A stretch of 64,000 nt of DNA. Source: an uncultured Verrucomicrobiota bacterium. Its GTDB lineage: Bacteria; Verrucomicrobiota; Kiritimatiellia; RFP12; UBA1067. Under the pieces are notes generated by a model that was not told where the DNA came from, searched no databases, and saw only the letters and a program-made list of their open reading frames with translations. This document shows positions 151-44,464 of the stretch, piece by piece; position 1 is the stretch's first letter; the number at the start of each line of letters is the position of its first letter. The stretch covers positions 35,948-99,947 of the forward strand of contig CAMOCC010000001.1 in the NCBI GenBank assembly GCA_946610035.1, in the 5' to 3' direction. Both the position numbers and the translations under genes were made by a program.

Positions 151-439
151 ACAGGGGGTTGCGTCGCTCCGCGACGCAACAAATAAGTGCCTGAAGCAAT
201 CGACCCCCATCCACGTCCTTTCTTGTTCCGTCGCGGAGCGACGGAACCCCCTTGCAATAGCTGTCGTTTGCCCATATTTCAGCGCATACACATATATAAG
301 GTATTTTTCATGCTGCTATCGACTAACGACTGACAACTAGTGACTCATTTCATTTTACATTTCCCATCTTCAGGGTTTTTAGTGGTTGCGCGAGTGGGCG
401 AATGAATTGTGGTTGGGAAGTCGACGGTTGTGAAGTCTT

Positions 440-1174
440 CTAGAGCGAGCCGGTGAAGCGGAGGAGCGCTTCAAGCGTCGTGGCCGGGTGCGGAGGGCAG
501 CCCGGGATGTAGAGGACCGGCGTCGCGGGCAGGTTGCCGCGCTCGTAGAGTCCGCCAGATATGGCACATGCGCCGGCGGCTATCAGGAACTTGGGCTCCG
601 GCGCGGCGGCGAAGGTCTTGTCGAGCGCGAGCTGCATGTTCTTCGACACTGGGCCGGTCACGTATATTGCGTCCGCATGGCGCGGCGAGGCGACGAAGCG
701 GATTCCGAACCGCCCCATGTCCCACGCAAGGGTTCCCAGTACGTTCGCATCGAGTTCGCACGCGGCGCAGCCTCCGGCGGAAACCTCGCGGAGCTGCAGC
801 GAGCGCTTCAGCGAAAGCGCGGCGGGGTCGGTCTGCTTCGGCGGCTCGTAGCCATGCTCTCCGGACTTCACGACGAGGTCCTCTCTTCTGAACACCCCGA
901 GACGGTATTCCTTCGTGAAGCGGATCTTGCCGCAGACCTCCGCGCAGCGTCCGCAGAAGATGCATCGCCCCATGTCGAGCTTCGCGCCCTCGACGTCGCG
1001 GGAAAGCGCGCCGACAACGGGGCAGACGGACTGGGCGCGCTCGACATCCTCGGCCGTGATGTCGGAGTCGATCTCGGGCCGTCCGCGGAAGTCCGGCGGA
1101 AGGTTCGGCGCGGCGGGAGGAAAGGCGCCCGTCTTGAAACCCTGTCTAAGTCGTTCGAATAAAGCCTTCAGCAT
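440..1174 (-). CDS. Group-4 hydrogenase small subunit (NuoB/HycG/HyfI-like) fused to an N-terminal 4Fe-4S ferredoxin-like segment (HyfH/HycF-like)
   Basis: N-terminal CIFCGRCAEVC (CxxCxxCxxxC). Then NuoB-type motifs GGCAACE, YVTGPV, AAGACAISGG, IPGCPPHP. ATG at 1174 follows a GACAGG spacer after the upstream gene's stop. Confidence 0.75.
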   Translation of the reverse strand: MLKALFERLRQGFKTGAFPPAAPNLPPDFRGRPEIDSDITAEDVERAQSVCPVVGALSRDVEGAKLDMGRCIFCGRCAEVCGKIRFTKEYRLGVFRREDLVVKSGEHGYEPPKQTDPAALSLKRSLQLREVSAGGCAACELDANVLGTLAWDMGRFGIRFVASPRHADAIYVTGPVSKNMQLALDKTFAAAPEPKFLIAAGACAISGGLYERGNLPATPVLYIPGCPPHPATTLEALLRFTGSL

Positions 1175-1178
1175 GGTG

Positions 1179-2462
1179 TCACCTGTCAGTTCCGCAGTAG
1201 GAGAGGTTGAATGATTTGTTGCAGATCGGGAAGTTCGATATCTGTTCGCCGCGAAGAGCGTAGGCAAGTCCCTGCCAGTTGTGGGCGGAAGGGTCCACGA
1301 TCTTGTAGCGGAGGAGTTTTCCGTCGGGATCGAAGAGTGCCGCGTGGACGAGCGGACCGCGCCAGGCGTTGACGGTTACGACGATTGTTGTGACGCGGCA
1401 AGATGCCGCGTCTCCATGACGGGTGGCGGTGATTGTTGTGACGCGGCAAGATGCCGCGTCTCCAGGGTGGGGAGCGGTGATTGTTGTGACGCGGCTGGAA
1501 GCCGCGTCTCCAGGGTGGGTGGCGGTGATTGCTGTGACGCGGCAAGATGCCGCGTCTCCAGTGTGGGGGGCGGTGATTGCTGTGACGCGGCAGGATGCCG
1601 CGTCTCCAAGGAGGGAGGCGATGCGCGCATGCGCCTCGTCTATCTCCATGCGGCGCACCAGTGCGCGCGAAAGGACGTCGCCTTGTAGCTCAGCGCTAGC
1701 GCGCCGCGCGACGCCGACGAGCCCGATTTCCTCTGCGGTCTCCTTTGGAACGACGCCTGTGCCTTCGAGCCGCTCAAGCACCGTCGGCTCCTCGAACATG
1801 AGCCTCAGCGCGCCGTCGAGATCTTTCCTGACGCGCGAGATCCACTCCGCGAGCTTCGCCTTCTTTTCGTCCGTCAGAGCCACACGCATTCCGCCAGGGA
1901 CGACCGCGTTGCGTCCGAACCTGTTTCCGCAGAGAAGCGCCGTCATGTTGAGGTATTCGCCGCGGATGCGTCCGCAGAACGACGCCGTCGGAAGGAACGC
2001 GACGTCTCCTGCGAGCGCGCCGAGATCGCCGACGTGGTTGGCGACGCGCTCGAGCTCGAGCAGCAGTTCGCGCAGGCGAAGGTCTTCGTCCGTCGGATGC
2101 TTCCCGTCGCGCGTCTCGCAGATTTCGGCGAAGCAAGTCGCCGCCGCGATCGAGGTGTCGCCCGCGCACGTCTCGGCTAGGGCGATCTGGCGGGAGCGGT
2201 TCCCGTCCGCCGCGGCAATTGCATCCTCAACGCCGCGGTGCTGGTAGCCGAGGAATATCTGGAGGTTGTATACATCCTCGCCCATGCACTGGAACCTGAA
2301 GTGCCCCGGCTCGATGACGCCGGCGTGAACGGGGCCGACGGCAACTTCGTGCGCTGACTCTCCCTTGAGCGGCGTCACGGCTTTCGGTTCGACATATCCG
2401 CCGAGCGAATCGAGAAAGGCGTTCGCTTCAGCGGCAGTTTCAAATATCTTTGTCTCGGTCAT
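1179..2462 (-). CDS. Group-4 hydrogenase / complex-I NuoD-like large subunit (HycE/HyfG/EchE-like), with an 80-aa in-frame repeat insertion
   Basis: Segments HFRFQCMGEDV, GYQHRGVEDAIA, ...VNAWRGPL.H..L...G...R.KIVDPSAHNW and C-terminal ...CGTDR match the NuoD/HycE fold. Five copies of DAASCRVTAITAPHTG are encoded by the 48-bp repeat array. Confidence 0.7.
   Translation of the reverse strand: MTETKIFETAAEANAFLDSLGGYVEPKAVTPLKGESAHEVAVGPVHAGVIEPGHFRFQCMGEDVYNLQIFLGYQHRGVEDAIAAADGNRSRQIALAETCAGDTSIAAATCFAEICETRDGKHPTDEDLRLRELLLELERVANHVGDLGALAGDVAFLPTASFCGRIRGEYLNMTALLCGNRFGRNAVVPGGMRVALTDEKKAKLAEWISRVRKDLDGALRLMFEEPTVLERLEGTGVVPKETAEEIGLVGVARRASAELQGDVLSRALVRRMEIDEAHARIASLLGDAASCRVTAITAPHTGDAASCRVTAITATHPGDAASSRVTTITAPHPGDAASCRVTTITATRHGDAASCRVTTIVVTVNAWRGPLVHAALFDPDGKLLRYKIVDPSAHNWQGLAYALRGEQISNFPICNKSFNLSYCGTDR
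1376..1622. repeat. 5 x 48-bp tandem palindromic repeat (240 bp, in frame) inside the large-subunit CDS
   Basis: Units ggtgattgttgtgacgcggcaagatgccgcgtctcca + 12 nt GGGTGG-like. Period is exactly 48. Each unit has the hairpin GACGCGGC/GCCGCGTC. Confidence 0.9.
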
Positions 2463-2478
2463 TGAAGGTGCCTTTCTG

Positions 2479-3744
2479 TCAGTTGTGCCAGGCCCCGGGA
2501 ATCGAAATGCATATGCAGGCCAGGACGCCGGACGCCACGAGGATGGCGAGCAGGGTGAATGGGACGATTAACATCTTTCCCGGAACGGGCTCGGGCTTCG
2601 CGACCGGAGTGCCCATCGTCATCGCGAGCGCGACTTTCATCATCGCCGCGAAGACGATGAAGAGAAGTGCGAGAACGAGCGCGGACATCCAGAGGGGCGC
2701 GGAGACGACGAGTCCGAGCTCGGAAGCGAACAGGACCGACGGCGGCATTCCGCAGATGAAGAGGACGCCGACGATCCACAGCGCGGAGTGTCCCTTCATG
2801 GAGACGCCGAGTCCCTGCACGGACGCGATCGCGCGCGTTCCGAAGGCGAGGAGAAGGTTGCCTGCCGTCTGGAAGAGCATCGTCTTCGTCAGTGAGTGGA
2901 AGACGATGTGCGCGAGGAGCGCTAGGCCGAGAACGGCGTCGCCTACGATTTCCCCGCCGGATATCAGGACGCCTCTGCCGGGGTCGGCCGGCGTGTGCAT
3001 GAAGATCGCGAACAGTATGACGATGAGACCCATGTGTTCGACGGACGAGTAGGCGAGTAGGCGCTTGAAGTCAGTCTGCCGCACCATGAAGACTGCCGCG
3101 ACCGCGACGGAGAGGATGCCGAAGAAGATCATCGACGCGTCGCAGAAGCCCGCGATCTCCGCCGGCATTATTTCGCGGAAGCGCGCGATCGCGAAGAACG
3201 AGCAGTTGAGGAGCGCGCCTGAGAGAAGCGCCGAGACGGGGGCGGGGGCTTCGGAGTGGGCGTCGGGGAGCCAGGTGTGGAAGGGCGCGAGGCCTGTCTT
3301 TGTTCCGTAGCCTGCGAGAATGAAGACGAAGCCGACCTTGAACCACATGCGGCAGCCTTCCGCCACGCCTTTCTCCTGGAGTTCCAGGGCGTGCATCACG
3401 AGCATGGTGCCGAATAGGGCGAGGCCGATTCCGATAGAGCAGATGAGAAGGTACTTCCACATCGCCTCAAGGGCGCCGCGGCTCCTGTGGTAGGCGATGA
3501 GCGGCGCGGAGACGAGAGTCGTAAGCTCCACCGCGACCCACATGAGCGGAAGGCTCGGGGAAAGGAGCGCAAACACCATCGCTCCGAAGAACGCCGAGAG
3601 GCATACGTAGTACGTCCGGTGCGACATGTGGTCGCCGCCTTCGCGGCGGTCGGCCTCGCGGATGTAGAACACGCTCTGCACGAGGTCGGCGACGAACAGG
3701 ACGGACGTGAGAGCGAGCATCAGTTTCTGTAGGGTTGAAATCAT
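2479..3744 (-). CDS. NuoM/NuoN-like antiporter-type membrane subunit (HyfF/HyfD-like)
   Basis: Polytopic membrane protein with the GLAPFHTWLPDAH motif typical of NuoL/M/N-family proton-translocating subunits. Confidence 0.7.
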   Translation of the reverse strand: MISTLQKLMLALTSVLFVADLVQSVFYIREADRREGGDHMSHRTYYVCLSAFFGAMVFALLSPSLPLMWVAVELTTLVSAPLIAYHRSRGALEAMWKYLLICSIGIGLALFGTMLVMHALELQEKGVAEGCRMWFKVGFVFILAGYGTKTGLAPFHTWLPDAHSEAPAPVSALLSGALLNCSFFAIARFREIMPAEIAGFCDASMIFFGILSVAVAAVFMVRQTDFKRLLAYSSVEHMGLIVILFAIFMHTPADPGRGVLISGGEIVGDAVLGLALLAHIVFHSLTKTMLFQTAGNLLLAFGTRAIASVQGLGVSMKGHSALWIVGVLFICGMPPSVLFASELGLVVSAPLWMSALVLALLFIVFAAMMKVALAMTMGTPVAKPEPVPGKMLIVPFTLLAILVASGVLACICISIPGAWHN

Positions 3745-3787
3745 GGTTTCTTAATTCCTCAATTCGTCTTTGACTGTTGTCCGCGTT

Positions 3788-4474
3788 TCAGTTCGACTGG
3801 TGCCTGTGCATAAGGTGCACGTCTCCAAGCGCGTTCAGCTTGTCCGTGTCGATGGACGAGAACGTGCGGTTGATTTGGTAGATTGCGATGCCGAGGACGA
3901 AGACGAGGACGAAGACGTCCAGCAGGATGCCAAGTTCGACGACGAGTCCGTATTCGAGCAGTATGCCCGAGCCGAAGACGGCGATTCCGTTTTCGAAGGC
4001 GAGGAATCCGAGGACCTGCGTTATCGCCTTGCGCCGCGCGCAGATGAGGAAGAGCCCCGTGCCCATCGTCGTGAACGCGACGGGGATCGCGAGCTCGGAG
4101 GCGACGGTCTCGTGGATGTGGAGGGCTTTCCCGATCGCGAAGCTCGCGGACGCGATTGCGAACGCGATGACCTGCGAGAGGCGGAATCCTACGAGCGGCT
4201 CGAGCTCGAAGTTGGCCTTTGCCCTGTCCGCTGCGTAGCGCAGGAGAATCGGCAGCGCGACGCCCTTGACGGCGCCGTTGACGAAGGCCACGGCCCATAC
4301 CCTGAAGCCCGGCGCTCCGGCGTCCGTCCAGTTCCAGAGGAGTATCGGCAATAGCCCGACCATCCATCCCTGGACAGCGACGAGGCGGATCGCCTGGCGC
4401 AGGCGTCCCGTGCCGGCGAGCACTATGTTCGTCAGAAGGAAAAGCGCGAGAAGAATTTCTGCTGTGGAAGTCAT
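3788..4474 (-). CDS. Small hydrophobic hydrogenase-4 component E-like membrane subunit (HyfE)
   Basis: 228-aa multi-TM protein. Sits between the NuoH-like and NuoN-like genes, as in hyf operons. Confidence 0.5.
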   Translation of the reverse strand: MTSTAEILLALFLLTNIVLAGTGRLRQAIRLVAVQGWMVGLLPILLWNWTDAGAPGFRVWAVAFVNGAVKGVALPILLRYAADRAKANFELEPLVGFRLSQVIAFAIASASFAIGKALHIHETVASELAIPVAFTTMGTGLFLICARRKAITQVLGFLAFENGIAVFGSGILLEYGLVVELGILLDVFVLVFVLGIAIYQINRTFSSIDTDKLNALGDVHLMHRHQSN

Positions 4475-4484
4475 TTGTGTTTCC

Positions 4485-5387
4485 TTAGAAAAGTATGTAA
4501 AGGACTGCCCCGAGCGTCGCGACCATCAGAGTGCCGAGAAGGACCTGCGGCGTCTTGAGGAAGCGCATGCGCGCGATCACGGACTCGACGATCCCGACTA
4601 GCACGGCCGTCGCAAGGATTCCTCCGAAGAGGACGACGGTCTTCGCCTCCGGTCCTATTGATAGCTTCGGAACGAGCATCGCAACGAGGAACGCGGCGAG
4701 CAGCTCGAACTTGAGCGCGGCACCGTAGAGGATGAAGGCGAGGTCTGGTCCGGCGTTGTCGAGTATCATCGCCTCGTGTATCATCGTGAGCTCGAGGTGC
4801 GTCTCGGGGTCGTCGAACGGCACGCGGCAGTTTTCGCAGAGGAGAATCGTGAAGAAGGCGACGGCGATCAGGATGAGCGAGAACGCGTGGTGCGTCCATG
4901 CCCCGCCGTCGTAGTCGCCGAGCATCCCAGGGAGATTGACGTCTCCCGAGAGGCAGACGAGGAAGCCGAGAATGACGAACACGATCGGCTCGACGAGGGC
5001 CGAGAACTGGACCTCGCGGCTCGCGCCCATTCCCTCGAACGCGCTGCCCGTGTCCAGCGCTCCGAGCACGGTGAAGAATCGTCCGGTGCCGAGAAGGTAG
5101 AAGAAGAGCGCCGCGCTGGCATGCGCGAACGTGCCCTGCCCCGGCCCCCACGGGAAGAGCATCGCCGCGATGGCCGTCGCAGCGAGCGAGACGGACGGCG
5201 CGATGTCGAAGAGCCACGTCGATGTCGTGGAGCGCGGACATGACTTGCGCATGAGCTTCGCGAGATCGAAGTAGAGGCGGAACAGCCCCGGGCCGCGGCG
5301 TCCCGCAAAGAACGCCTTCGTCTGGTTGACGATGCCGGGGAGGAGCGGCGCGAGCAGCGCAGCAAGGAGGAAGGTGAGTATGTTCAT
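4485..5387 (-). CDS. NuoH/HycD/HyfC-like membrane subunit
   Basis: Starts MNILTFLLAALLAPLLPGIVNQTKA. The ATG overlaps the upstream stop (ATGA). Multi-TM NuoH-like topology. The six-frame ORF upstream of this start is GC-rich read-through, not coding. Confidence 0.65.
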   Translation of the reverse strand: MNILTFLLAALLAPLLPGIVNQTKAFFAGRRGPGLFRLYFDLAKLMRKSCPRSTTSTWLFDIAPSVSLAATAIAAMLFPWGPGQGTFAHASAALFFYLLGTGRFFTVLGALDTGSAFEGMGASREVQFSALVEPIVFVILGFLVCLSGDVNLPGMLGDYDGGAWTHHAFSLILIAVAFFTILLCENCRVPFDDPETHLELTMIHEAMILDNAGPDLAFILYGAALKFELLAAFLVAMLVPKLSIGPEAKTVVLFGGILATAVLVGIVESVIARMRFLKTPQVLLGTLMVATLGAVLYILF

Positions 5388-7138
5388 GATGCGAAGGCGG
5401 CGACGAGAAGAACGACAACCGTGATGAGTATGAGAAGTATGTAGAGATGGAGCGATCCGCTCTGGAGGAGATGCGCACGCTGGAAGGCGCGGGCGAAGAA
5501 GGTGAAGAGCGGACGCCAGAAGCCCGCAAGCGCGCGGTCGTCCGTCTCGGTGACGAGCGCTGCGTCCGTCGGCGCGGCGGGATGTCCCTTGAACGGGATG
5601 AGGTGCTTCCGGGGCCTGAGCGCGAACGCGAAGAGGTCCGCAAGCGGCTGCGTGAACGCGGTCGCCGTGTAGGCCATGCGCGCGGTCGGCTCGTGGTAGC
5701 CGCAGTCCCAGGTAGGGCATTGCGGCTTGACCGCTCCGCGCGGACACAGGAATCGGCGCAGTCCGACGAGCGCGGCGGTCATCAGGACAAGCGCGCCTCC
5801 GATCGTCGCAGCGGTGAGGAGCGTGGCCTCGCCTATGCCGTTGGCGAACTTGTGGACGATGAAGATCGTTCCAGGGATCATCGCCACGGAACCGAGGAAC
5901 AGCGCGAGCTGGGCTATCCACATGCGCTTCGGCGTCTCGATGGCGTCTGCGGCGGCTTTGCTGCGAGGCTCGCCGAGGAAGGTCGCGCCGATCGCCTTGC
6001 AGTAGGCCGCCGCGGCGAGTCCGCCGGTGAAGGCGAGCGCCGCGAGCACGGTGAATCCGGCGGCGACGAGCAGGGGGCTGCCGGACCTGACGGCGAGGAA
6101 TCCTGCAGTGTAGATGAGGAGCTCGCCGAGGAAGCCGTTGAGCGGGGGGAGTCCGGCGAGGCCGAGCGCGTTGAGGGTGAAGAGCGTGCCTGTGAAGGGC
6201 ATGCGCTTCATGAGTCCGCCGAGCCTGTCCTGGTCGAGCGTTCCCGTCTGGCGCAGGATGGAGCCTGCGCCGAGGAAGAGCGCGCCCTTGAGGAGCGCGT
6301 GGTTCATGACGTGCACAAGCGCGCCGGTGAAGGAGAGGACATAGATCTCGGAGAAGAGCGAGCCGCCGTCGCGCGAGTTCGCGACGAGGGCGAGCCCGAG
6401 ACCCATGGCTATGACGCCCATGTTCTCGACGGACGAAAAGGCGAGGAGCTTCTTCAGGTTGACCTGCGGGAGGGCGAAGAGGATTCCGCCTATTGCTCCT
6501 GCGACACCGAGCGCGATAAGGGTGAGACCGGCGGTCGTGTTGTATGGAACGACTGTGCTGACTGGCCAGAAAAAGTTGAGAAGGCCGTAGAAGCCGAGGG
6601 GGATCATCGCGCCGGACATGACGGCGGAGGCGGGGGCCGGGGCGGCGGGATGCGCTTCAGGGAGCCAAACATGGAACGGCGGGAAGCCTATCTTGAGTCC
6701 GAAACCGACGATTGCGCAGAAGAACGCGGCGAGAAAGGCGTCCGGACTATTGAGGAACACGCCCGCGAGCATGAGCGCGCACGCGCCCGCGTGGCACGCG
6801 AGGAGGTAGATCCATGTCGCCCTGCGTACGGTTTTTTCGGTGTTTTCGAAGGCGACGAGTCCGGCCGAGGAGAGCCCCATCGCCTCCCAGGCGAGGAGAA
6901 ACGAAATCTTGCCGGGCGCATAGACGACGGCGAGCATGGACGCCAAAGTCGCCAAAAAGAAGGCCCAGAAGCGGGGAAGGTGATTTTTCGCCTCGCCGTG
7001 AAGGTAGGCGGTCGCATGCAGCGCGGCCGCCGCGCCGACGGCTGCGATAGGCAGTGTGAATAGAAGTTTTGTCTGCACGATAATGATCCCGGTTTGAAGA
7101 AGACCGCATATTATACTCTTATGCGCCGATTCTGGCAA
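5384..7138 (-). CDS. NuoL/HycC/HyfB-like large antiporter-type membrane subunit (exact start uncertain)
   Basis: Motifs FPPFHVWLPEAHPAAPAPASA, KKLLAFSSVENMG and many TM helices. First gene of the minus-strand operon. Confidence 0.7.
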   Translation of the reverse strand: MPESAHKSIICGLLQTGIIIVQTKLLFTLPIAAVGAAAALHATAYLHGEAKNHLPRFWAFFLATLASMLAVVYAPGKISFLLAWEAMGLSSAGLVAFENTEKTVRRATWIYLLACHAGACALMLAGVFLNSPDAFLAAFFCAIVGFGLKIGFPPFHVWLPEAHPAAPAPASAVMSGAMIPLGFYGLLNFFWPVSTVVPYNTTAGLTLIALGVAGAIGGILFALPQVNLKKLLAFSSVENMGVIAMGLGLALVANSRDGGSLFSEIYVLSFTGALVHVMNHALLKGALFLGAGSILRQTGTLDQDRLGGLMKRMPFTGTLFTLNALGLAGLPPLNGFLGELLIYTAGFLAVRSGSPLLVAAGFTVLAALAFTGGLAAAAYCKAIGATFLGEPRSKAAADAIETPKRMWIAQLALFLGSVAMIPGTIFIVHKFANGIGEATLLTAATIGGALVLMTAALVGLRRFLCPRGAVKPQCPTWDCGYHEPTARMAYTATAFTQPLADLFAFALRPRKHLIPFKGHPAAPTDAALVTETDDRALAGFWRPLFTFFARAFQRAHLLQSGSLHLYILLILITVVVLLVAAFAS

Positions 7139-7204
7139 TGGCGTCCCGCGCCGTGCGGGTCTCTTTCCTTGGTTTGTTCAACTGAATCCACCGCTTTGCG
7201 ACGA

Positions 7205-7222
7205 TTTTTGATATAATATACA
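7205..7222 (+). promoter_or_regulatory. Extended -10 promoter TGATATAAT, 9 nt upstream of the argS ATG (leaderless-type)
   Basis: tttTGaTATAATatacagcctATG. AT-rich island in a GC-rich genome. Confidence 0.5.
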
Positions 7223-7226
7223 GCCT

Positions 7227-8960
7227 ATGACGCTCACAGACATTGTAAAATCGGCCTTTGAGAAGGCGTTCCCCGGGGAGGATCTCGGCGGCATCCGCGT
7301 GGTGCCCGCGACCGACCCCAAGTTCGGCGACTACCAGTGCAACGATGCCCTGAAGCTGGCCAAGAAGGTGGGCTTGAAGCCCCGCGACGCCGCACAGAGG
7401 GTTGCGGACTCGCTTGACCGCGCCTGCTTCGAGAAGGTTGAGGTCGCGGGGCCGGGCTTCCTCAACCTCACCGTTTCGCAGAGCTGGCTCAACTCCCGGC
7501 TTGCGGCGCTCGACGCGGCGCCCAATTGCGGCATCCCGCAGAACGGGAGGGGCAAGAAGATCGTGATCGACTACTCCTCCCCGAACGCCGCCAAGCAGAT
7601 GCACATCGGGCACATCCGCTCGACCGTGATCGGCAACGCCATCGACCGGATCTTCCGTTCGCTTGGATACGAGGTCGTCGCAGACAACCACCTCGGCGAC
7701 TGGGGTACGCAGTTCGGCATCCTCATCAAGGGCTACCGCGACCTCCTGACGGACGACGAGAGGGCGAACCTGACGGTCCCCGTCCTTGAGAAGTGCTATG
7801 TCCTCTCCGCGGCGAAGGCGAAGGAGGAGGACGGCGTGTGGCGCGAGGAGTGCAAGGCGGAGCTCGTGAAGCTGCAGCAGGGCGATGCGGAGAACCTTGC
7901 GCTCTGGAAGCGCTTCATCGACATCTCCATAGCCGAATTCAACCGCATGTACGCGAAGCTCGGCGTCAAGTTCGACACCTACCGCGGTGAATCGTACTAC
8001 AATCCGCTGATGCCCGGCGTCGTCGACCGGCTGCTGAAGGCGGGGCTCGCCGAGGAGTCGGAGGGTGCGCTCGTCGTCAAGCTCGAGAAGGAGAAGCTGG
8101 GAGTGGCGATCGTCAGGAAGTCCGACGGCGGCTACAACTACACGACGAGCGACCTTGCATGCGTCGAGAGCCGCGTGAAGGACTACGACCCCGAGCGCAT
8201 CATCTACGTGACCGACGACCGTCAGCAGCTCCACTTCAAGCAGTTCTTCTCCATCTGCGGCAAGCTCGGCTACACCGTGAAGCTCGTACACGTTCCGTTC
8301 GGGCTCATGAGCTACCAGGGCAAGGCCATATCGACGCGCGAAGGAAACCTCATCAAGCTCGACGACCTCCTCGCGGAGGCCGTGAGGCGCTCGAAGGCTA
8401 TCGTCGAGGCGAGGGCCGAAGGGGCCGCGGAGGGTCCGAAGGCCGCCGAGGGAGACGTCCTCAGGCTTGCCGAGCAGATCGGCTTCGGCGCGGTCAAGTA
8501 CGCCGACTTGAGCCACGACCCCGCGACGGCCATCGACTTCAACTGGGACAAGGCGCTCGCCCTTGAGGGCAACTCCGGCCCCTACCTCCAGTACGCCTAC
8601 GCGCGAGTCAAGTCGCTGCTGGCGAAGGCGGGGGGCGACGGGGCCTCTGGCGGAGTCGCACCCATGCCCAATGGCGTTGGAGGCTTTTTGGTTGCGGGGC
8701 CCGTAGAGAAGCGTCTCGCGTTGCAGCTCCTGGAGTTCCCGGGGGCCGTGGTGAGGGCGGCGGAGGCGTACAAGCCGAGCGTCCTCGCAGACTACCTCTT
8801 CCAGACGGCGCAGCTCTACTCGAGCTTCTACCAGAACTCGCCGATACTGAGGAGCGAGGAGCCTGTGAGGTCCGCAAGGCTCAGGCTTTGCGCGCTCTTC
8901 GGCGAAATCCTGAGGTCAGGACTCGGCCTTCTCGGCATCGAGACGCCCGAGCACATCTGA
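7227..8960 (+). CDS. argS: Arginyl-tRNA synthetase
   Basis: Class-I HIGH motif (QMHIGHIRSTVIGN), DNHLGDWGTQFG, 577 aa. Confidence 0.9.
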   Translation: MTLTDIVKSAFEKAFPGEDLGGIRVVPATDPKFGDYQCNDALKLAKKVGLKPRDAAQRVADSLDRACFEKVEVAGPGFLNLTVSQSWLNSRLAALDAAPNCGIPQNGRGKKIVIDYSSPNAAKQMHIGHIRSTVIGNAIDRIFRSLGYEVVADNHLGDWGTQFGILIKGYRDLLTDDERANLTVPVLEKCYVLSAAKAKEEDGVWREECKAELVKLQQGDAENLALWKRFIDISIAEFNRMYAKLGVKFDTYRGESYYNPLMPGVVDRLLKAGLAEESEGALVVKLEKEKLGVAIVRKSDGGYNYTTSDLACVESRVKDYDPERIIYVTDDRQQLHFKQFFSICGKLGYTVKLVHVPFGLMSYQGKAISTREGNLIKLDDLLAEAVRRSKAIVEARAEGAAEGPKAAEGDVLRLAEQIGFGAVKYADLSHDPATAIDFNWDKALALEGNSGPYLQYAYARVKSLLAKAGGDGASGGVAPMPNGVGGFLVAGPVEKRLALQLLEFPGAVVRAAEAYKPSVLADYLFQTAQLYSSFYQNSPILRSEEPVRSARLRLCALFGEILRSGLGLLGIETPEHI

Positions 8961-9118
8961 CCCCTTGCGCTTTCGCCGCATTTTTGATAAACTATGCGAC
9001 TGTCTTGTGAAGTCGGGGGCAAACCGGCTTCCCTGGCCGGGGCGGGCGCTCTGGTCTGTATCGCGGACAAAACCCCGGAAAAAGGGCACAAATCCGCAAG
9101 AAAAAGGAAAGTAAGAAG

Positions 9119-9550
9119 ATGAAGAAGAGCTACCGTGCTCCGAACCCGGGCGACAATCGCCAGTGGTTCCTCGTCGACGCGAAGGATCAGCCGCTCGGCC
9201 GCCTCGCAGTCGTTATCGCCAACAAACTCCGTGCGAAGGACCTTCCCACGTTCGACCCGTCCGTCGACGCCGGCGCGTTCGTCGTCGTGGTCAACGCCGC
9301 CCAGGTCAAGCTCTCCGGCAACAAGGAGGAGAAGAAGGACTACACGCGCTACAGCGGATTCCGCGGCGGACTCAAGCACTTCACGGCCGCAGAGATGCGC
9401 GCTTCGCATCCCGACCGCATGATCCTCGAGGCCGTCTGGGGCATGCTCCCGAAGAACAACATCGCGCGCAAGATGATGACGCGCGTGAAGGTCTTCGCCG
9501 GCGCCGAACACACACACGCCGCGCAGAAGCCGGTTGAAATCAAGCTGTAA
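9119..9550 (+). CDS. rplM: 50S ribosomal protein L13
   Basis: 143 aa, MKKSYRAPNPGDNRQWFLVDA...; canonical L13. Upstream TGaTAAACT promoter (~8980) and AAAGGAAAG SD. Confidence 0.9.
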   Translation: MKKSYRAPNPGDNRQWFLVDAKDQPLGRLAVVIANKLRAKDLPTFDPSVDAGAFVVVVNAAQVKLSGNKEEKKDYTRYSGFRGGLKHFTAAEMRASHPDRMILEAVWGMLPKNNIARKMMTRVKVFAGAEHTHAAQKPVEIKL

Positions 9551-9563
9551 GGAGAGATAGAAA

Positions 9564-9965
9564 ATGGCTACCAAGAAGGCAATTTCCGCCGGAACCGGCC
9601 GTCGCAAGACCGCGAGCGCCCGCGTCAACCTCGTCGAGGGGACTGGCGTCTGGACCGTCAACAAGGTCGCTCTCGAGGAGTACATCACCTCCGAGGCCCT
9701 CCGCGACTATCTCAAGCAGCCCGTCGCGATCAGCGGCTACGACATGTCCAAGGTGGACGTCGTGGCGTTCGCCAAGGGCGGCGGCATCGCCGGCCAGGCC
9801 GGCGCGATCCGCCACGGTCTCGCCCGCGCCCTTGTCGCGGCTGACGAGTCCACGCGCGCGGCCCTCAAGAAGGCCGGCTGCATGACTCGCGACAGCCGCA
9901 TGAAGGAGCGCAAGAAACCCGGTCAGCCCGGCGCCCGCAAGCGCTTCCAGTTCTCGAAGCGTTAA
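9564..9965 (+). CDS. rpsI: 30S ribosomal protein S9
   Basis: 133 aa, C-terminal ...PGARKRFQFSKR. Confidence 0.9.
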   Translation: MATKKAISAGTGRRKTASARVNLVEGTGVWTVNKVALEEYITSEALRDYLKQPVAISGYDMSKVDVVAFAKGGGIAGQAGAIRHGLARALVAADESTRAALKKAGCMTRDSRMKERKKPGQPGARKRFQFSKR

Positions 9966-9976
9966 TCGCGGTTGTC

Positions 9977-11887
9977 ATGGCATTCGGTTTTCTCAAGAAG
10001 ATCGTCTCCGCCCTCTCCGGCGGCAAGAAGCCGGAGAAGGGCGGGAAGTCCGACCGACAGGGCCAGGGCGGCGACGGCAAGGGCCGTCGCGGCAGGCGCG
10101 GCGGGAAGGACGGCGCGAAGCAGCAGGGCGGCCGCGGCGACAAGCAGCCGCAGGGCCGTCGCGGCGACAAGCAGCCGCAGGGCGATCAGAAGAAGTCGCG
10201 CGACGGGCAGCAGCCGCGCGGCGAGCGTCGTTCGGAGGGGCGCGGGCAGAAGGCGCGTCGCGACGACAGGCGCGGCGGCAGGGGCGATCGCGGCAGGCGC
10301 GGTCCGGCGCCGGTGAACACGGCGGCGGGCGAGATGCGCCCGGGCGGCGAGGTTTCGTCAGCCGAGCTTGAGGCCCGCAAGGCCGCCCACGCGGCCTGGG
10401 ACCCGGCGTCGTTCGTGGTCGAGCCCGCCGAGGGCAAGAAGCGCTTCCACGATTTCGACCTTCCCTCCGAGGTGATGCACGGCATAGCCGACCTCGGCTT
10501 CAAGTACTGCACCGAGATACAGGCTCTTTCGCTCGAGCAGGCGCTCGCCGGCAAGAACATCGCCGGCAAGGCCCAGACCGGCAGCGGCAAGACGGCCGCG
10601 TTCCTCGTGGCGATACTGACCCGCTACCTCAGGACGCCCGAGAGCCGCGCCAAGACGGGCGGCACTCCGCGTGCGCTCGTGATCGCGCCCACGCGCGAAC
10701 TCGTCATCCAGATTTGCAAGGACGCCGATGCGATCGGCAGGTACTGCGGACTTAGGTCCCTCGCAATCTACGGCGGGATGGACTACGACCGCCAGAAGCG
10801 CGAGGTATCCGACGCTCCCGTCGACCTTCTCGTCGCGACCCCCGGCCGACTCCTCGACTTCGTCAAGTCGCACGTGATCAACCTCTCGAGCGTCGACACG
10901 CTCGTCATCGACGAGGCGGACCGCATGCTCGACATGGGCTTCATCCCGGACGTCCGCCGCATAATGAGCTATCTGCCGCCGAAGAACAAGCGCGCGACGA
11001 TGCTCTACTCCGCGACGCTCAACGACACGGTGATGCGCCTTGCGATGAACTGGATGGAGGAGCCGTTCAAGGCCGAGGTCGCAAGCGAGACCAACGCGAC
11101 GGACACCGTCCGCCAGGTCGTGTACATCGTACGCTCCGACGACAAGTTCAAGGTCCTTTTCAACCACATCGCCCTCCACCCGGAGGCGCGCGCGATCGTC
11201 TTCTGCAACCGCAAGTCGACGACCGAGGACGTCTACGACTCGCTGCGCGTGCGCGGCGTGAACGTCGAGATGCTCTCGGGCGACGTCAACCAGAACAAGC
11301 GCCTCAAGGTGCTCGACGCGTTCAGGGACGGAGAGGTGAAGGTCGTGGTGGCGACTGACGTCGCAGGCCGCGGAATCGACATCAAGGGACTCGAGTACGT
11401 GATCAACTTCGACTTCCCCTACGAAGCCGAGGACTACGTGCACCGCATCGGCCGCACGGGCCGCGCGGGCTCGACCGGAATCGCGATCAGCTTCGCGGAC
11501 GAGGACGAGAGCTTCGCGATCCCCGAGATCGAGGAGTACATCAAGGAGCCCCTCAAGTGCACGATGATCCAGGACGACGACCCGCTCCTGAAGCCTCTTC
11601 CCGCCCGCGGTACGAGGCTCGGCGACGTCGACGCCTCGGCGAAGGCCGAAGTCGACGCGCGCGAGGCCGTCGGCGAGGAGGAGATTGCCGCCGCGGCGGC
11701 GCTCACAGGCGTCGCGAACGCGACGACGGCGAGCGGGGCCCCTGCGGTGCTGAAGGAGGACGCGCCCATGCGGACGCTCCCTAAGTTCGAGAACGCGCTG
11801 GAGCCGAAGGCCCCGCCGCCGGACGAATCGGACGTCTATTCCAAGCCGGTCGAGCAGAAAACGAAGCTCGAGGAGTGGAAAATGTGA
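9977..11887 (+). CDS. DEAD-box ATP-dependent RNA helicase with ~130-aa N-terminal Gly/Arg/Lys/Gln-rich low-complexity extension
   Basis: Motifs AQTGSGKT, PTRELV, DEAD (VIDEADRMLDMGF), SAT, HRIGRTGRAG. Confidence 0.85.
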   Translation: MAFGFLKKIVSALSGGKKPEKGGKSDRQGQGGDGKGRRGRRGGKDGAKQQGGRGDKQPQGRRGDKQPQGDQKKSRDGQQPRGERRSEGRGQKARRDDRRGGRGDRGRRGPAPVNTAAGEMRPGGEVSSAELEARKAAHAAWDPASFVVEPAEGKKRFHDFDLPSEVMHGIADLGFKYCTEIQALSLEQALAGKNIAGKAQTGSGKTAAFLVAILTRYLRTPESRAKTGGTPRALVIAPTRELVIQICKDADAIGRYCGLRSLAIYGGMDYDRQKREVSDAPVDLLVATPGRLLDFVKSHVINLSSVDTLVIDEADRMLDMGFIPDVRRIMSYLPPKNKRATMLYSATLNDTVMRLAMNWMEEPFKAEVASETNATDTVRQVVYIVRSDDKFKVLFNHIALHPEARAIVFCNRKSTTEDVYDSLRVRGVNVEMLSGDVNQNKRLKVLDAFRDGEVKVVVATDVAGRGIDIKGLEYVINFDFPYEAEDYVHRIGRTGRAGSTGIAISFADEDESFAIPEIEEYIKEPLKCTMIQDDDPLLKPLPARGTRLGDVDASAKAEVDAREAVGEEEIAAAAALTGVANATTASGAPAVLKEDAPMRTLPKFENALEPKAPPPDESDVYSKPVEQKTKLEEWKM

Positions 11888-11894
11888 AAATCAA

Positions 11895-11945
11895 TCGCAT
11901 TTGCCCCCTTGCCAAACGGGGGCAAAATGTGGTAAACTATCAATC
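11895..11945 (+). promoter_or_regulatory. rpsL promoter: -35 TTGCCA, 18-nt spacer, TGgTAAACT extended -10. A GC hairpin gcccccTTGCCAaacgggggc overlaps the -35.
   Basis: cccTTGCCAaacgggggcaaaatgTGgTAAACTat. About 30-nt leader with AAGGAAAAC SD before the ATG at 11975. Confidence 0.6.
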
Positions 11946-11974
11946 TTGTTTGGAAAAGTAAGGAAAACAACTAA

Positions 11975-12358
11975 ATGCCGACTATCAATCAGCTGATCCG
12001 CAAGGGCCGCTCGCCGCTTGCGAAGCATTCGAAATCGCCCGCGCTGAAGGCGTGCCCCCAGCGCCGCGGCGTCTGTCTCGTCGTCAAGACGATGACACCC
12101 AAGAAGCCTAACTCCGCGCTCCGCAAGGTCGCCCGTGTGCGCCTTACGTCCGGCTACGAAGTGACGGCCTACATCCCCGGCGAGGGACACAACCTCCAGG
12201 AGCACAGCGTCGTTCTCGTGCGCGGTGGCCGCGTGAAGGACCTTCCGGGCGTCCGCTACCACATCGTCCGCGGCAAGCTCGACTCGCTGGGCGTCGCCGG
12301 CCGCAACCGCAGCCGCTCGAAGTACGGCATGAAGCGCCAGAAGAAGGAGGCGAAGTAA
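11975..12358 (+). CDS. rpsL: 30S ribosomal protein S12
   Basis: [12 protein letters not shown]..., 127 aa. Confidence 0.9.
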
Positions 12359-12361
12359 GCC

Positions 12362-12886
12362 ATGTCCAGAAGAGCAAAGAAGATCGAGAAGCGCGTCTCG
12401 CTCGACCCCAAGTACAACTCCGAGCTCGTCGCCCACATGATCCGCGTGATCATGAAGGACGGCAAGAAAACCGCCGCCGAGAAGATCGTCTACGGTGCGA
12501 TCGACAAGATCAAGGAGGCCGTCGAGAAGGAGCCCGCCAAGTTCACCAAGGACGAGAAGCAGTTCACCGATCCCCTGGAGGTCCTCTCCGCTTCGATCGA
12601 CAACATGAAGCCCCAGGTCGAGGTCAAGACCCGCCGCGTCGGCGGCACGACCTACCCCGTCCCGGTGCCGATCGCCCCGAACCGCCAGCTCTCGCTCGCG
12701 CTTCGCTGGACGACGCAGTTCGCCGGTGCGCGCCACGGCATGGGCATGCCCGCCGCTGTCGCCGCCGAGGTCATCGACGCGTTCCTGGGCCAGGGCAACG
12801 TCATCAAGAAGCGCGACGACGTGCACAAGATGGCCCAGGCCAACAAGGCGTTCGCCCACTACGCGTGGGGCAACAACGCCGGTTGA
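12362..12886 (+). CDS. rpsG: 30S ribosomal protein S7
   Basis: 174 aa, canonical S7. Not followed by fusA/tuf. Confidence 0.9.
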   Translation: MSRRAKKIEKRVSLDPKYNSELVAHMIRVIMKDGKKTAAEKIVYGAIDKIKEAVEKEPAKFTKDEKQFTDPLEVLSASIDNMKPQVEVKTRRVGGTTYPVPVPIAPNRQLSLALRWTTQFAGARHGMGMPAAVAAEVIDAFLGQGNVIKKRDDVHKMAQANKAFAHYAWGNNAG

Positions 12887-12914
12887 GGTCCATGGAAAAA
12901 CTTTTCCAGGCATG

Positions 12915-12946
12915 AAAACGCCGCGGCACGGGCCGCGGCGTTTTTG
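12915..12946 (+). terminator. Rho-independent terminator after rpsG
   Basis: cgccgcggc-acgg-gccgcggcg followed by TTTTT. Confidence 0.7.
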
Positions 12947-12963
12947 ATATAATATACGATGTC

Positions 12964-14919
12964 ATGAAAATACTAGGTGAACAGATATTCGCTAAGGATG
13001 CCGAGGGCCGCCAGGTCAGCCGCATCGGAACGCTCTTCTTCAAGACCCCCGGCCTTGTGACGCGCCGGGGCATCCACGCCATGCAGCGCATGATGTGGAT
13101 CGACGACATCAACGCGGGCCGCGCGGCTGCGGGGCTTGCGCCGCTTACCGAGGCCGAGGAGGACGAGGAACTCGCGCAGTCCGTCGACCTCATCTTCACC
13201 GACGAGCACGTGCTCATCCGTCCCGATCCCGACCACATGGACCTCGCGATGAAGGCGGACGAGGTGCTGCAGACGCTCGTCTCCAAGAGGAAGATACGCT
13301 TCCTCAACACGCATGCGGCGAAGGTGCGCAACGCACTCAGGGCGCGCGGCGAGAACTGGCGAATGGCGCGCCAGCCGATTTCGCAGGATGACATGGTCCG
13401 CCTCATCGAGAGCTCCAAGGTCGCCATCAGCGGCGAGCCGATCTACTACTACAACTCCGCGACCGGCACGCGCTACGTGACGGTCGGCGGCTCCGAGGGC
13501 CTCGCCCACCTTCCGCCCGCGGCCTGCCGCGAGCAGCTGAAGGAGGCGCAGAAGATGCTTGTGCGGCGCAACAGGCTGGGGCACGTCGAACTGGACCTCT
13601 TCCCGACGACCACGCCAGTGGAGATCAAGCAGAAGTTCAAGTCCCTCGACGTGGATTCTCTTACCGACGAGCAGCTTTGCGAGACGGTCGAGCGCTTCGA
13701 CGCCGAGTGGCGCATGTCCATCCCGGCGGAGCTTCGCGAGGAGTCGGTGGACAACTTCGAGTGGCGCAACGCGATGTGCGCGACGATCACACAGGAGGCG
13801 AACGAGACGTCCGCCGACGAGCGCGAGCTCATCCAGGGCATAAGCCCCGAGTTCTACCGCCAGATCGAGTGGCTGCCAGGTCTCCGCATAACGGACGGGG
13901 AGATCATCTTCGACCCGCTGTGGGACGAGTACAACCGCACCCGCGACCCTGAGCTCGCCGAGATATGCGATCCGCGCGTAAGGAACATCCTCTTCAACTT
14001 CACGCGCCAGTTCGGCGAATTCGAGTACGTGAACGTCGGGCGCATCTCAAAGTCGCTCGCCCGCAGGCCCATCACCGGCTCCCGCCGGGGGAGCGTCTAC
14101 ATCCTCCAGTACAAGATCGCCGGCCAGCCGGAGTCGCGCGTCTCCATCCTGCGATTCCAGAAGTGGGGCGTGGCGGAGCACCTGGACGAGGGCAAGGACC
14201 TGCTCACCGCGATGTTCGAGGCGAACGACTACTCGGACTACATCATGGACAGGCGCATCATGTGCCGACAGCTGGGCATGAACCTCCCGCCCTATCTCGG
14301 CGCCGGGCAGTTCCCGGAGCAGTACAACGGGCAGAACCAGTACCGCGGCACGACGATCAGGACCACCTACTTCATCCGCGAGTACGTCCCCGGCACGGCG
14401 TCCGACAAGATTCCGCCCGCGCGCTTCCGCAACCCCGTCTTCGCGCTCAAGTTCGCAAGGCTCATGGGCGAGGCGGCCGCGCTGGACCTCGTCGTCGGCC
14501 GCCGCTCGTCGGAGACGAAGGAGAACCTCTTCGACAAGAACTACGAAGTCGTCCAGTTCGGCCCGGACGGCCTCCCCCGAGGCATAATGGTTTCCGACCA
14601 CGCCGGCAGCTTCGTGAACTACCTCCACACGTTCGAGGACGCCGTCGCGCCCTACGCGAACGTCGTCCGCCGCCGCTTCGGATTCGTGTCCGACCCCAAG
14701 GCTTTCGCCAACGCGTACGTATCCGCCTTCGAGGCGAAGCTGGAGGCCGTCCAGGAGTGCTACCGTGCGCGTCGCAGTTCGTTCGACGAGCTGCTGATGC
14801 ACCGGCCCTTCGACTCTGCAGGCTCCGTTGCCTACCGCTGGACGAAGACGCTCGAGCGGCTCGACGGATGCAATCCGAAGAACGTCGCCGCGAAGCTCAG
14901 GGAAGCGATAGAGGCCTGA
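12964..14919 (+). CDS. Hypothetical 651-aa cytoplasmic protein (no recognisable family). Own TGaTATAAT promoter lies 11 nt upstream.
   Basis: Long ORF with coding-like composition. The TATAAT island sits at 12947-12952. Confidence 0.5.
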   Translation: MKILGEQIFAKDAEGRQVSRIGTLFFKTPGLVTRRGIHAMQRMMWIDDINAGRAAAGLAPLTEAEEDEELAQSVDLIFTDEHVLIRPDPDHMDLAMKADEVLQTLVSKRKIRFLNTHAAKVRNALRARGENWRMARQPISQDDMVRLIESSKVAISGEPIYYYNSATGTRYVTVGGSEGLAHLPPAACREQLKEAQKMLVRRNRLGHVELDLFPTTTPVEIKQKFKSLDVDSLTDEQLCETVERFDAEWRMSIPAELREESVDNFEWRNAMCATITQEANETSADERELIQGISPEFYRQIEWLPGLRITDGEIIFDPLWDEYNRTRDPELAEICDPRVRNILFNFTRQFGEFEYVNVGRISKSLARRPITGSRRGSVYILQYKIAGQPESRVSILRFQKWGVAEHLDEGKDLLTAMFEANDYSDYIMDRRIMCRQLGMNLPPYLGAGQFPEQYNGQNQYRGTTIRTTYFIREYVPGTASDKIPPARFRNPVFALKFARLMGEAAALDLVVGRRSSETKENLFDKNYEVVQFGPDGLPRGIMVSDHAGSFVNYLHTFEDAVAPYANVVRRRFGFVSDPKAFANAYVSAFEAKLEAVQECYRARRSSFDELLMHRPFDSAGSVAYRWTKTLERLDGCNPKNVAAKLREAIEA

Positions 14920-14926
14920 CGGCGCC

Positions 14927-15901
14927 ATGTGGCGGTACATCGGCAGGAGGCTCCTGGAGGTGATTCCGACTACGTTCGGGATTCTCCTCCTCACGTTCGT
15001 CCTCTTCAACGTCGTCTCCGGCGGCTCCCCCGCCGCGACGATACTGGGGAAGGGGGCGGACGAGAAGTCGATCGCCGCTTTCAACAAACGCTACGGATAC
15101 GACAAGCCGCTCCTTGTCGGCGACTGGCGCGCCGAGGACGGCTCCTTCCGGCCGTCGAAGGCGTTTGACAGCCAGTTCTTCAACTTCCTGAAGAGCGTCG
15201 CGACGGGAGACCTCGGCTACTCGTCCAAGCTGGACGAGCCGGTGGCGGACGTCCTGAAGCGCGGCGTCGGGCCGTCCCTTTCGCTAACCGTGCCGATACT
15301 CTTCCTCGGAGTCGTCTTCGCGCTGTTCCTCGCGCTCCTCTCCGCCGCGTATCGAGGGCGGGTGCCTGACAGGATAATACTCTTCGTCTCGGCGGCCCTC
15401 ATGAGCGTCAACTACGTCGTGTGGGTCCTCGCCGGACAGTTCCTTCTGGCGTTCAAGGCGGGCTGGTTCCCGATATGGGGGTATTCGGGGCCGAGCTACC
15501 TCGTCCTCCCCGTGGCCATCGGGGTGCTCAGCTCGCTCGGAATGGACGTGCGTTTCTTCAGGACCGCCGTCATGGACGAGATTTACAAGCCGTACGTCCT
15601 CACCGCCCGGGCGAAGGGACTGACGCCGTCCGTCATAATGACACGTCACGTCCTGCGGAACGCCCTGATACCGATAGTGACGTACGTTTCGCTCTCGATT
15701 CCGTACCTCTTCACTGGCTCGCTCCTCCTGGAAAGCTTCTTCGGGATCCCCGGTCTCGGGTCCGTCTCGATAAACGCGATACAGTCGGCGGACCTCGCAG
15801 TCGTCCGCGCCGTGGTGGTCCTGGGCGCGCTCCTGTACCAGTTCGTGAACCTTGCGACGGACCTCCTGTATGCGATTCTCGATCCGAGGGTCGCCTTGTA
15901 G
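14927..15901 (+). CDS. ABC transporter permease, DppB/OppB family (orphan: no partner C/D/F/A genes nearby)
   Basis: N-terminal YIGRRLLEVIPTTFGILLLTFVLF. EAA-like loop ARAKGLTPSVIMTRHVLRNALIPIVT. Confidence 0.75.
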   Translation: MWRYIGRRLLEVIPTTFGILLLTFVLFNVVSGGSPAATILGKGADEKSIAAFNKRYGYDKPLLVGDWRAEDGSFRPSKAFDSQFFNFLKSVATGDLGYSSKLDEPVADVLKRGVGPSLSLTVPILFLGVVFALFLALLSAAYRGRVPDRIILFVSAALMSVNYVVWVLAGQFLLAFKAGWFPIWGYSGPSYLVLPVAIGVLSSLGMDVRFFRTAVMDEIYKPYVLTARAKGLTPSVIMTRHVLRNALIPIVTYVSLSIPYLFTGSLLLESFFGIPGLGSVSINAIQSADLAVVRAVVVLGALLYQFVNLATDLLYAILDPRVAL

Positions 15902-15915
15902 GTGTGGAGGTGTTG

Positions 15916-17207: not shown

Positions 17208-17353
17208 CTCCTGAGTGGAACATGTTCCGGGTGACGGCAAGGGGTCTCTCGCCATCTGATAGTCGGGTCGTTGCGCAGGCGACGAGTTGCGGAATGGCAG
17301 TGTCCGTAAGATGATTTCCCGAAGGCGGCGTAAAAATGATATAATATCCTTCA

Positions 17354-26790: not shown

Positions 26791-26824
26791 GGTCAAGCGC
26801 GAAAAGGCGATATTTGGTATAATA

Positions 26825-31033: not shown

Positions 31034-31043
31034 GTCCAGTATA

Positions 31044-32042: not shown

Positions 32043-32084
32043 AGCCTTGTCCTTTCTTGTAGATGGGTTTTGGTGGGCGTTCGG

Positions 32085-36378: not shown

Positions 36379-36390
36379 CTACCGAATGTC

Positions 36391-39417: not shown

Positions 39418-39490
39418 TGGATTATTCCTTTCATGTTAACTTGTTGTTATTGTTGTTTGTGTTTTGCATTCACCCCTCTATACAAAAATC

Positions 39491-40639: not shown

Positions 40640-40645
40640 GGGTTT

Positions 40646-44440: not shown

Positions 44441-44464
44441 TCGGACATACCTGTAACGCAGCTA

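Follow-up and report, generated by a model that had tools for sequence, protein, structure and literature searches.

Extended -10 promoter elements directly abut the start codons of eight genes in a 64,000-nt stretch of DNA from an uncultured Kiritimatiellia bacterium (contig CAMOCC010000001.1; hereafter the window, meaning this whole stretch), and these genes are predicted to give rise to leaderless, or nearly leaderless, mRNAs. The first-pass annotation of the window had proposed that AT-rich boxes lying immediately upstream of many start codons reflect a genome-wide habit of leaderless translation initiation. The placement it described was confirmed, with all eight of its cited examples present, and the leaderless interpretation is supported in silico. 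Public gene calls and flanking sequence were taken from the European Nucleotide Archive metagenome scaffold ERZ28612940 (SAMN02144230, scaffold_307; 111.5 kb; sheep rumen), of which the window covers bases 35948-99947. Genes were called by a self-trained codon log-likelihood and then checked against Pfam, giving 55 genes in the window, whose mean GC content is ~63%; the public calls on the source scaffold match our own for most genes. Throughout, d denotes the number of nucleotides between the last T of the -10 hexamer and the first nucleotide of the start codon.

The perfect motif TGNTATAAT occurs six times in the window against an expectation of 0.14, a count reached in 0 of 100 shuffles, and all six copies are intergenic. 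Five of them lie 7-10 nt upstream of a start codon (7227, 12964, 17354, 26831, which is a GTG, and 62853 on the minus strand), while the sixth (62942) belongs to a leadered promoter of a gene with a Shine-Dalgarno (SD) sequence. Three further starts are abutted by weaker extended -10 boxes, namely TGATAATAT (44533), TGGTAAGAT (54783) and TGGTATACT (56874). When the window was scanned for TGnTAnnnT near starts, 8 of the 55 genes had a copy of TGNTANNNT ending 5-11 nt before the start codon, that is, 8 of 32 copies against 0.096 expected (Poisson p=1.7e-13). This loose pattern is not enriched overall (32 copies vs 25 expected); the signal resides solely in its position and in the perfect consensus. 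The eight leaderless-type genes are as follows.

7209-7217, plus strand: TGATATAAT, d = 9, before ATG 7227 of argS (577 aa).
12945-12953, plus strand: TGATATAAT, d = 10, before ATG 12964 of the gene for a 651-aa protein, behind a terminator at 12914-12945.
17337-17345, plus strand: TGATATAAT, d = 8, before ATG 17354 of a GT4 glycosyltransferase gene, with an in-frame TAA within the -10.
26815-26823, plus strand: TGGTATAAT, d = 7, before GTG 26831 of the gene for a 464-aa protein.
44517-44525, plus strand: TGATAATAT, d = 7, before ATG 44533 of the gene for a PPIase with a signal-peptide-like N-terminus.
54768-54776, plus strand: TGGTAAGAT, containing an in-frame TAA, before the gene for a 680-aa protein, with ATG 54777 at d = 0 and ATG 54783 at d = 6.
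56858-56866, plus strand: TGGTATACT, d = 7, before ATG 56874 of a metallophosphoesterase gene.
62871-62863, minus strand: TGGTATAAT, d = 9, before ATG 62853 of a histidine kinase gene, whose product has the signal-peptide-like N-terminus MKLHGILALSAVVAALASLA.

The promoters named in the first-pass annotation all stood, and several of the details attached to them were revised. A spacing of 9 nt was correct for argS, where positions 7205-7229 read ttttTGATATAATatacagcctATG, and for 62853. At 12964, 17354 and 56874 it had been given as 11, 9 and 10 nt and is in fact 10, 8 and 7 nt, respectively, and the box before 44533, originally read as TGaTGATAAT + 9, is best read as TGATAATAT with d = 7. Of the two starts offered for the 464-aa protein, GTG 26831 was retained, whereas TTG 26825 would lie at d = 1 and is implausible. 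Similarly, the 680-aa gene had been started at ATG 54777, directly adjoining the hexamer; ATG 54783 fits and is likely its leaderless start.

Several lines of evidence indicate that the proposed starts are authentic. In-frame stops within the -10 bound the open reading frames (ORFs) of argS, 17354 and 54783; in argS the TGA of the motif is itself such a stop, so that 7227 is the earliest possible start. Pfam profiles begin at residue 1-2 in ArgRS (Arg_tRNA_synt_N, residues 2-82 aligned to profile positions 2-84) and in the metallophosphatase encoded at 56874 (Metallophos_2, profile position 1 at residue 1). Signal-peptide-like N-termini are found in the PPIase, in the protein starting at 54783 (MKIAKAFSF...) and in the histidine kinase, and the argS N-terminus is common to 80 orthologs. 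The public calls coincide with the leaderless start for argS, 12964, 17354, 26831 and 56874, and at 12964 and 26831 gene callers are the only source of the start. That the promoter habit would affect start-codon annotation, as had been suggested, was borne out by two genes where the public calls differ: the histidine kinase is called from 62883 (698 aa) and thus runs through its own -10, and the 680-aa gene is called from 54822 (665 aa), losing MKIAKAFSFALST of the signal-peptide-like N-terminus.

The call at 54822 might instead be taken to mean that start codons have been mis-assigned and that the true starts lie downstream, behind ordinary leadered promoters. This is indeed true of one motif. 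Behind the sixth perfect copy, GTG 62956 (d = 5) was considered as a leaderless start and rejected as spurious, given that ATG 63004 has both an SD and a lipobox. As a general account, mis-assignment appears scarcely credible, because Pfam N-terminal domains and Rossmann/P-loop motifs lie within 1-9 residues of the proposed starts, the argS N-terminus is kept across the 80 species, and later starts would truncate signal peptides.

The same layout recurs in related genomes. The comparative set consisted of 80 loci from GTDB species representatives, retrieved with the ArgRS protein (70-81% identity) and nearly all labelled as Kiritimatiellia or Verrucomicrobia/Lentisphaerae metagenome-assembled genomes (MAGs) from rumen and gut. 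Together with the window these loci comprise 624 kb (GC 0.43-0.68); expectations were derived from a first-order Markov model, and distances in the relatives were measured from the motif to the first downstream start codon with a reading frame of 100 aa or longer. When the window proteins were searched by tblastn against the 80 loci, all centred on argS, hardly any neighbours proved to be shared, and the start checks relied on Pfam N-terminal coordinates instead. TGNTATAAT occurs 108 times in the 624 kb, compared with 3.0 expected (36-fold). Its distance to the start codon is bimodal: every distance from d = 6 to d = 9 has 7-8 matches and d = 10 has 5-6, almost none fall at 11-23, and a broad hump extends from 24 to ~60, the latter with SD sequences. 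After de-duplication, a start codon followed at d = 5-11 for 42 of 104 motifs, whereas the reverse-orientation control gave 5 of 102. These 42 start-abutting motifs span 26 gene families; the start codon is ATG in 38 cases, and a pyrimidine occupies -1 in 34 (binomial p=3e-5), both preferences holding across d = 6-10 in the pooled set. In 7 of 10 genes checked (Ugd, CoaC-type flavoprotein, DinB, FTHFS, Adk, DnaB and FabD), the Pfam N-terminal domain begins at residues 4-9, which argues that the -10-adjacent ATG is the real N-terminus. A Ugd-like gene keeps the leaderless layout in five species while the sequence and length of its spacer vary (d = 7-9).

Taken together, the placement in the window, the enrichment in relatives and the orientation control refute the idea that AT-rich hexamers and starts merely meet by chance in short intergenic regions, an idea to which the overall count of the loose pattern in the window had lent some colour.

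Alignment of the 104 promoters yielded the logo aaaTtTGgTATAATat, in which T at -17 carries 1.2-1.3 bits and T-12, A-11 and T-7 are fixed. Between -45 and -25 the same alignment contains only ~0-0.2 bit, which leaves no -35 signal, and a scan of positions 6900-18000 of the window, which takes in three of the leaderless promoters, found a -35 for none of them. These features, namely an exact match to the sigma-70 extended -10 consensus, strand specificity, two distance classes and restriction of the leaderless spacing to operon heads, support a predicted promoter element rather than an RNA signal.

In the window, all eight leaderless-type genes are operon heads, each preceded by a gap of 40 nt or more, by a terminator or by a divergent neighbour. 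Non-leaderless operon heads have a like promoter 25-125 nt upstream together with an AGGAGG-type SD. For the genes rplM, rpsL, 28228 and 63004, longer leaders with SD sequences had been claimed, and the sequence upstream of each agrees, the SD of 28228 being GAGGAGG. The promoters that serve as contrasts, together with one borderline case, are listed below.

62942-62950, plus strand: TGGTATAAT of the GDPD lipoprotein gene, with a leader of ~47 nt, SD AGGAGG at 62990-62995 and ATG 63004.
11909-11938, plus strand: TTGCCA-18-TGGTAAACT of rpsL, with a spacing of 36 nt, SD AAGGAAA and ATG 11975.
8985-8993, plus strand: TGATAAACT of rplM, ~125 nt before ATG 9119, with SD AAGGAAAG.
7138-7110, minus strand: TTGCCA-17-TATAAT, a classical -35/-10 promoter without TG, 31 nt before GTG 7078 of the Nuo/Mrp-like operon, divergent from argS.
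43233-43228, minus strand: TATACT, non-extended, d = 11, before ATG 43216 of an integrase gene in a low-GC island (borderline).

The SD of 63004 lies 8 nt upstream of an ATG that opens a lipoprotein signal peptide with lipobox, and the public call has 324 aa. The first-pass annotation was correct that the -10-abutting genes lack an SD, because the -10 fills that space. Among the remaining 47 genes, 33 have an SD core (AGGA/GGAG/GAGG/AAGG, 4-18 nt upstream), compared with 18.5% of random 15-mers, and operon-internal genes mostly carry such cores without a TA motif at leaderless spacing. A single odd case in the window is TGATATACT at 31038-31046 (minus strand), which overlaps the stop of the upstream gene and lies 4 nt before ATG 31033 of an operon-internal HEAT-repeat gene. 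It is too close for a leaderless start and may be an internal promoter for a downstream start or a chance occurrence; we regard it as doubtful.

Two terminators bear on where transcripts begin. The rpsL-rpsG terminator hairpin at 12914-12945 (-34.3 kcal/mol, z -5.1) has a U-tract that runs into TGATATAAT, so that the 53 nt of 12914-12966 hold terminator, promoter and start codon, and a terminator-like hairpin at 44464-44496 (z -3.5) lies 20 nt 5' of TGATAATAT. Since these terminators end at or just before the -10, transcripts should start between terminator and ATG, which leaves no space for a leader. The 12964 promoter shares the U-tract of the rpsG terminator, which supplies its T-rich positions -16 to -20, and GGCGTTTT-TGnTATAAT junctions appear again in the relatives L009, L015, L020, L029, L049 and L058.

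It could be argued that the box instead works at the RNA level on longer transcripts begun further upstream, either enhancing translation or serving as a non-SD ribosome-binding site like those of Bacteroidetes or those bound by S1, for it sits at the position of a ribosome-binding site and is A/U-rich in a GC-rich genome. This is very unlikely. The box matches the extended -10 consensus exactly, with T-12, A-11 and T-7 fixed, and the same motif stands 24-60 nt before SD-bearing genes; operon-internal genes, which mostly have SD cores, lack it at leaderless spacing; read-through transcripts are made improbable by the terminators ending near 12945 and 44496; and the reversed motif has no start association (5/102). 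Rfam and tRNA scans of the window identified no family and no tRNA gene, which leaves no riboswitch or leader RNA as an explanation; nor did the Rfam scan find a 16S rRNA in the window, so the anti-SD is not readable there.

We therefore return to the promoter interpretation and its proposed mechanism. The genes would be served by a housekeeping sigma-70-type promoter, TnTGnTATAAT, which is an extended -10 element in which T-17 is also conserved and which acts independently of a -35. It would be placed so that the start-site window of RNA polymerase (RNAP), ~7-11 nt past the hexamer, meets the A of the start codon. We consider it highly probable that the sigma-A holoenzyme binds this element without -35 contact and starts transcription at the A of the ATG. 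The transcript would then begin with AUG, or with at most ~1-4 extra nucleotides, and lack an SD, and translation would presumably be leaderless, the ribosome with initiator tRNA recognising the 5'-terminal AUG. Both the precise start of transcription and the route of translation are inferred from these sequence patterns. A transcript starting at the ATG is consistent with a spacing that fits the RNAP start-site window, with the terminators near the -10 and with the pyrimidine at -1 in 34 of 42 cases. Cappable-seq showed a Y-1/R+1 preference to be universal among bacterial transcription starts (PMC4782308), and the -1 pyrimidine matches this rule, as expected of a true 5' end. For SD-independent translation from a 5'-terminal AUG, the one consistent observation is the preference for ATG (38 of 42).

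Several observations weigh against this interpretation or narrow it. All comparative loci were gathered around a single gene, argS, and the set was seeded with the perfect motif. GTG 26831 is the sole GTG among the leaderless-type starts of the window, and this codon supports leaderless initiation poorly in E. coli, though mycobacteria tolerate it. A further 19.5 kb flanking the window on the source scaffold, kept aside as a held-out test, yielded no new leaderless case; its two extended -10 promoters are both leadered (d = 35 and 22, with an SD). This makes the per-genome leaderless fraction uncertain. A spacing of d = 8-10 reaches or exceeds the outer limit of start-site selection in E. coli, so some of these transcripts may carry leaders of 1-4 nt instead of none, and a pyrimidine occupies -1 in only four of the eight window cases, the others having A or G. 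Vvedenskaya et al. reportedly found in 2015 that E. coli RNAP selects starts at positions 6-10, with 7-8 preferred. An alternative register, TAATAT, shifted two bases downstream, was tried as an explanation for d = 8-10 and fits only some cases.

These spacing data bring up the possibility that the promoters are real and start at the canonical +7/+8, leaving leaders of 2-4 nt at d = 8-10 and short-leader, non-SD translation. Four of the eight window genes have such spacings (d = 9, 10, 8 and 9), argS has a purine, G7223, at position 6 after the hexamer, and the -1 pyrimidine count of the window points the same way. We consider this unlikely, because in the pooled set the preferences for a -1 pyrimidine and for ATG hold over d = 6-10. 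Furthermore, 5' untranslated regions of up to ~5 nt are conventionally counted as leaderless. Short leaders would refine the promoter interpretation rather than constitute a separate mechanism.

Leaderless-type genes account for 8 of ~22 operon heads in the window (9 with the borderline integrase), a small sample. Over 83.5 kb of contig the figure is 8-9 of ~26 operon heads and about 12-14% of genes, again a small sample; overall, roughly one third of operon heads and 12-15% of genes on this contig show the layout. The first-pass annotation had called the habit genome-wide. It is far above chance on the contig and in relatives, and the claim is tempered in that the coverage was 83.5 kb of contig plus the relatives, with a flank that added no new case.

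The comparative set also allowed the initiation layout of a single gene to be followed across species. In 13 species an extended -10 lies 6-10 nt before the argS ATG; in a further 21 it is 12-52 nt away, at 26 nt or more in all but one of them, with leaders that are generally purine-rich; and in the other 46 no extended -10 was found within 120 nt, argS directly following an upstream gene in many of these. At 70-81% protein identity, these layouts indicate that the predicted mode of argS initiation turns over quickly in the clade.

The gene map of the window includes the following.

440-7078, minus strand: Nuo/Mrp-like operon.
argS, rplM-rpsI-DEAD helicase and rpsL-rpsG, at the coordinates given above for argS, rplM and rpsL.
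17.3-30.2 kb: glycosyltransferase/LicD cluster.
Downstream end of the window: metallophosphatase, ruvC, two-component system and GDPD lipoprotein genes.

Apart from its promoters, the window contains several repeats. Heptanucleotide tandem repeats of AATGGAA/AATGTAA lie within genes of the glycosyltransferase/LicD/cytidylyltransferase cluster (x7.9 at 24514-24568 and x4.7 at 27546-27578), with a single copy at 351-361 (minus strand), and AATGTAAAATG-like words number 10 against 0.16 expected. Because a 7-nt unit shifts the reading frame, slipped-strand phase variation is possible, and these repeats could be phase-variation tracts. The repeat at 24514-24568 lies ~40 codons before the stop of an APH+GT10 gene and just 5' of a translationally coupled 267-aa gene; a 310-aa ORF at 24557 is absent from the public calls, which have the 267-aa gene from 24686. 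In the NuoD-like gene (1179-2462, minus strand), a 48-nt unit is tandemly repeated x5.0 at 1383-1620 (88% matches), each unit holding the hairpin GACGCGGCAAGATGCCGCGTC, and Complex1_49kDa matches the protein only at positions 8-104 of 271, before the repeat region. Nested 18- and 42-nt tandem repeats at 58642-58774 within a 160-aa ORF (58393-58875) point to a low-complexity repeat protein. Finally, a phage-type integrase gene (42107-43216, minus strand) sits between two inverted gene clusters that are diverged paralogs of each other, one on the minus strand at 30227-41720 and one on the plus strand at 43655-54720 (23-49% aa identity), and GC content falls to 0.53-0.60 around the integrase and over the plus-strand cluster. 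The products of the two clusters include HEAT, reprolysin-like, Wzy_C, Trx7-like and PPIase proteins and several unknown secreted proteins, and the PPIase paralogs differ in initiation layout, 44533 being leaderless-type and 40639 not.

Comparable habits have been described in other bacteria. GeneMarkS-2 assigned 1028 of 4769 bacteria, mostly Actinobacteria and Deinococcus-Thermus, to its group C, in which the leading genes of operons have a Pribnow box ~10 nt upstream and 25-50% of operons are predicted to be leaderless (PMC6028130), and Zheng et al. 2011 identified TA-led genes in 207 of 953 bacterial genomes, with TAnnnT in high-GC and TAtaaT in medium-GC groups (PMC3160421). The genes described here share with both a Pribnow-like box ~6-10 nt before first genes and SD sequences elsewhere, in mostly high-GC genomes, but unlike the degenerate TAnnnT of high-GC group C they have a full TGnTATAAT with T-17 at 63% GC. 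They also differ from group B, the Bacteroidetes-type non-SD ribosome-binding site, in that no common AT-rich motif precedes all genes. Neither paper (PMC6028130, PMC3160421) names Kiritimatiellia in its main text. As in Deinococcus-Thermus, the -10 lies directly before the ORF, the layout involves roughly a third of genes or operons (here an estimate from a small sample), starts are mis-annotated and the layout is conserved in relatives (de Groot 2014, PMC4007540; Zhong 2025, PMC12340547). Deinococcus, however, has a spacing of ~6-7 bp and TACACT as its commonest hexamer, as opposed to 6-10 nt and TATAAT with TG, and the Deinococcus case has been proven by differential RNA sequencing and reporters (PMC4007540; PMC12340547), whereas the present one is predicted from sequence. 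Mycobacteria and other actinobacteria likewise have TANNNT 6-8 nt before ATG/GTG, no SD and a large share of such transcripts (Cortes 2013; Shell 2015, PMC4633059), though they belong to another phylum and commonly use GTG, in contrast to ATG in 38 of 42 cases here.

Closer in phylogeny, Cappable-seq of Akkermansia muciniphila found ~10% of transcription start sites to be leaderless (PMC4782308). Akkermansia, a gut organism of the same Planctomycetes-Verrucomicrobia-Chlamydiae (PVC) superphylum, thus provides experimental proof of leaderless mRNAs in this group, although it belongs to a different phylum or class, has a lower fraction and shows both -35 and -10 signals, as against no -35 information here. 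The promoter itself resembles the extended -10 (TGn) promoters and the TRTG promoters of the Firmicutes -16 region that Voskuil and Chambliss in 1998 and Mitchell et al. in 2003 are said to have described, usually with ordinary leaders: TG at -15/-14, T at -17 and a dispensable -35 are shared, whereas 40-44% of the perfect-consensus copies here abut a start codon. Kiritimatiellae have been assigned the anti-SD CCUCCUUU, with SD pairing in 63% of mRNAs (PMC10783764), a figure compatible with a sizeable SD-less minority. Full-text literature searches returned no paper linking leaderless initiation to Kiritimatiellia. What we describe is therefore a known genome habit in a new clade, with no new mechanism and with differences of degree, namely the full consensus plus T-17 at 63% GC, the missing -35 signal and the somewhat wider spacing of 6-10 nt.

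Kiritimatiellia are abundant and almost uncultured polysaccharide degraders of rumen and gut, known mainly from MAGs. On balance, we lean towards the view that gut and rumen Kiritimatiellia are a further major lineage in which at least one third of operons are leaderless, driven by an information-rich, -35-less TnTGnTATAAT despite ~63% GC, and in which argS has repeatedly switched layouts. This would add a PVC class to the leaderless-rich bacteria and document rapid switching of initiation mode within one orthologous gene; if true, the clade would be a natural system for studying the evolutionary turnover of translation-initiation mode. Gene callers that expect an SD would be prone to misplace starts in Kiritimatiellia MAGs, and taking the promoter consensus and the leaderless habit into account would improve the prediction of starts, signal peptides and secretomes as well as the design of expression constructs.

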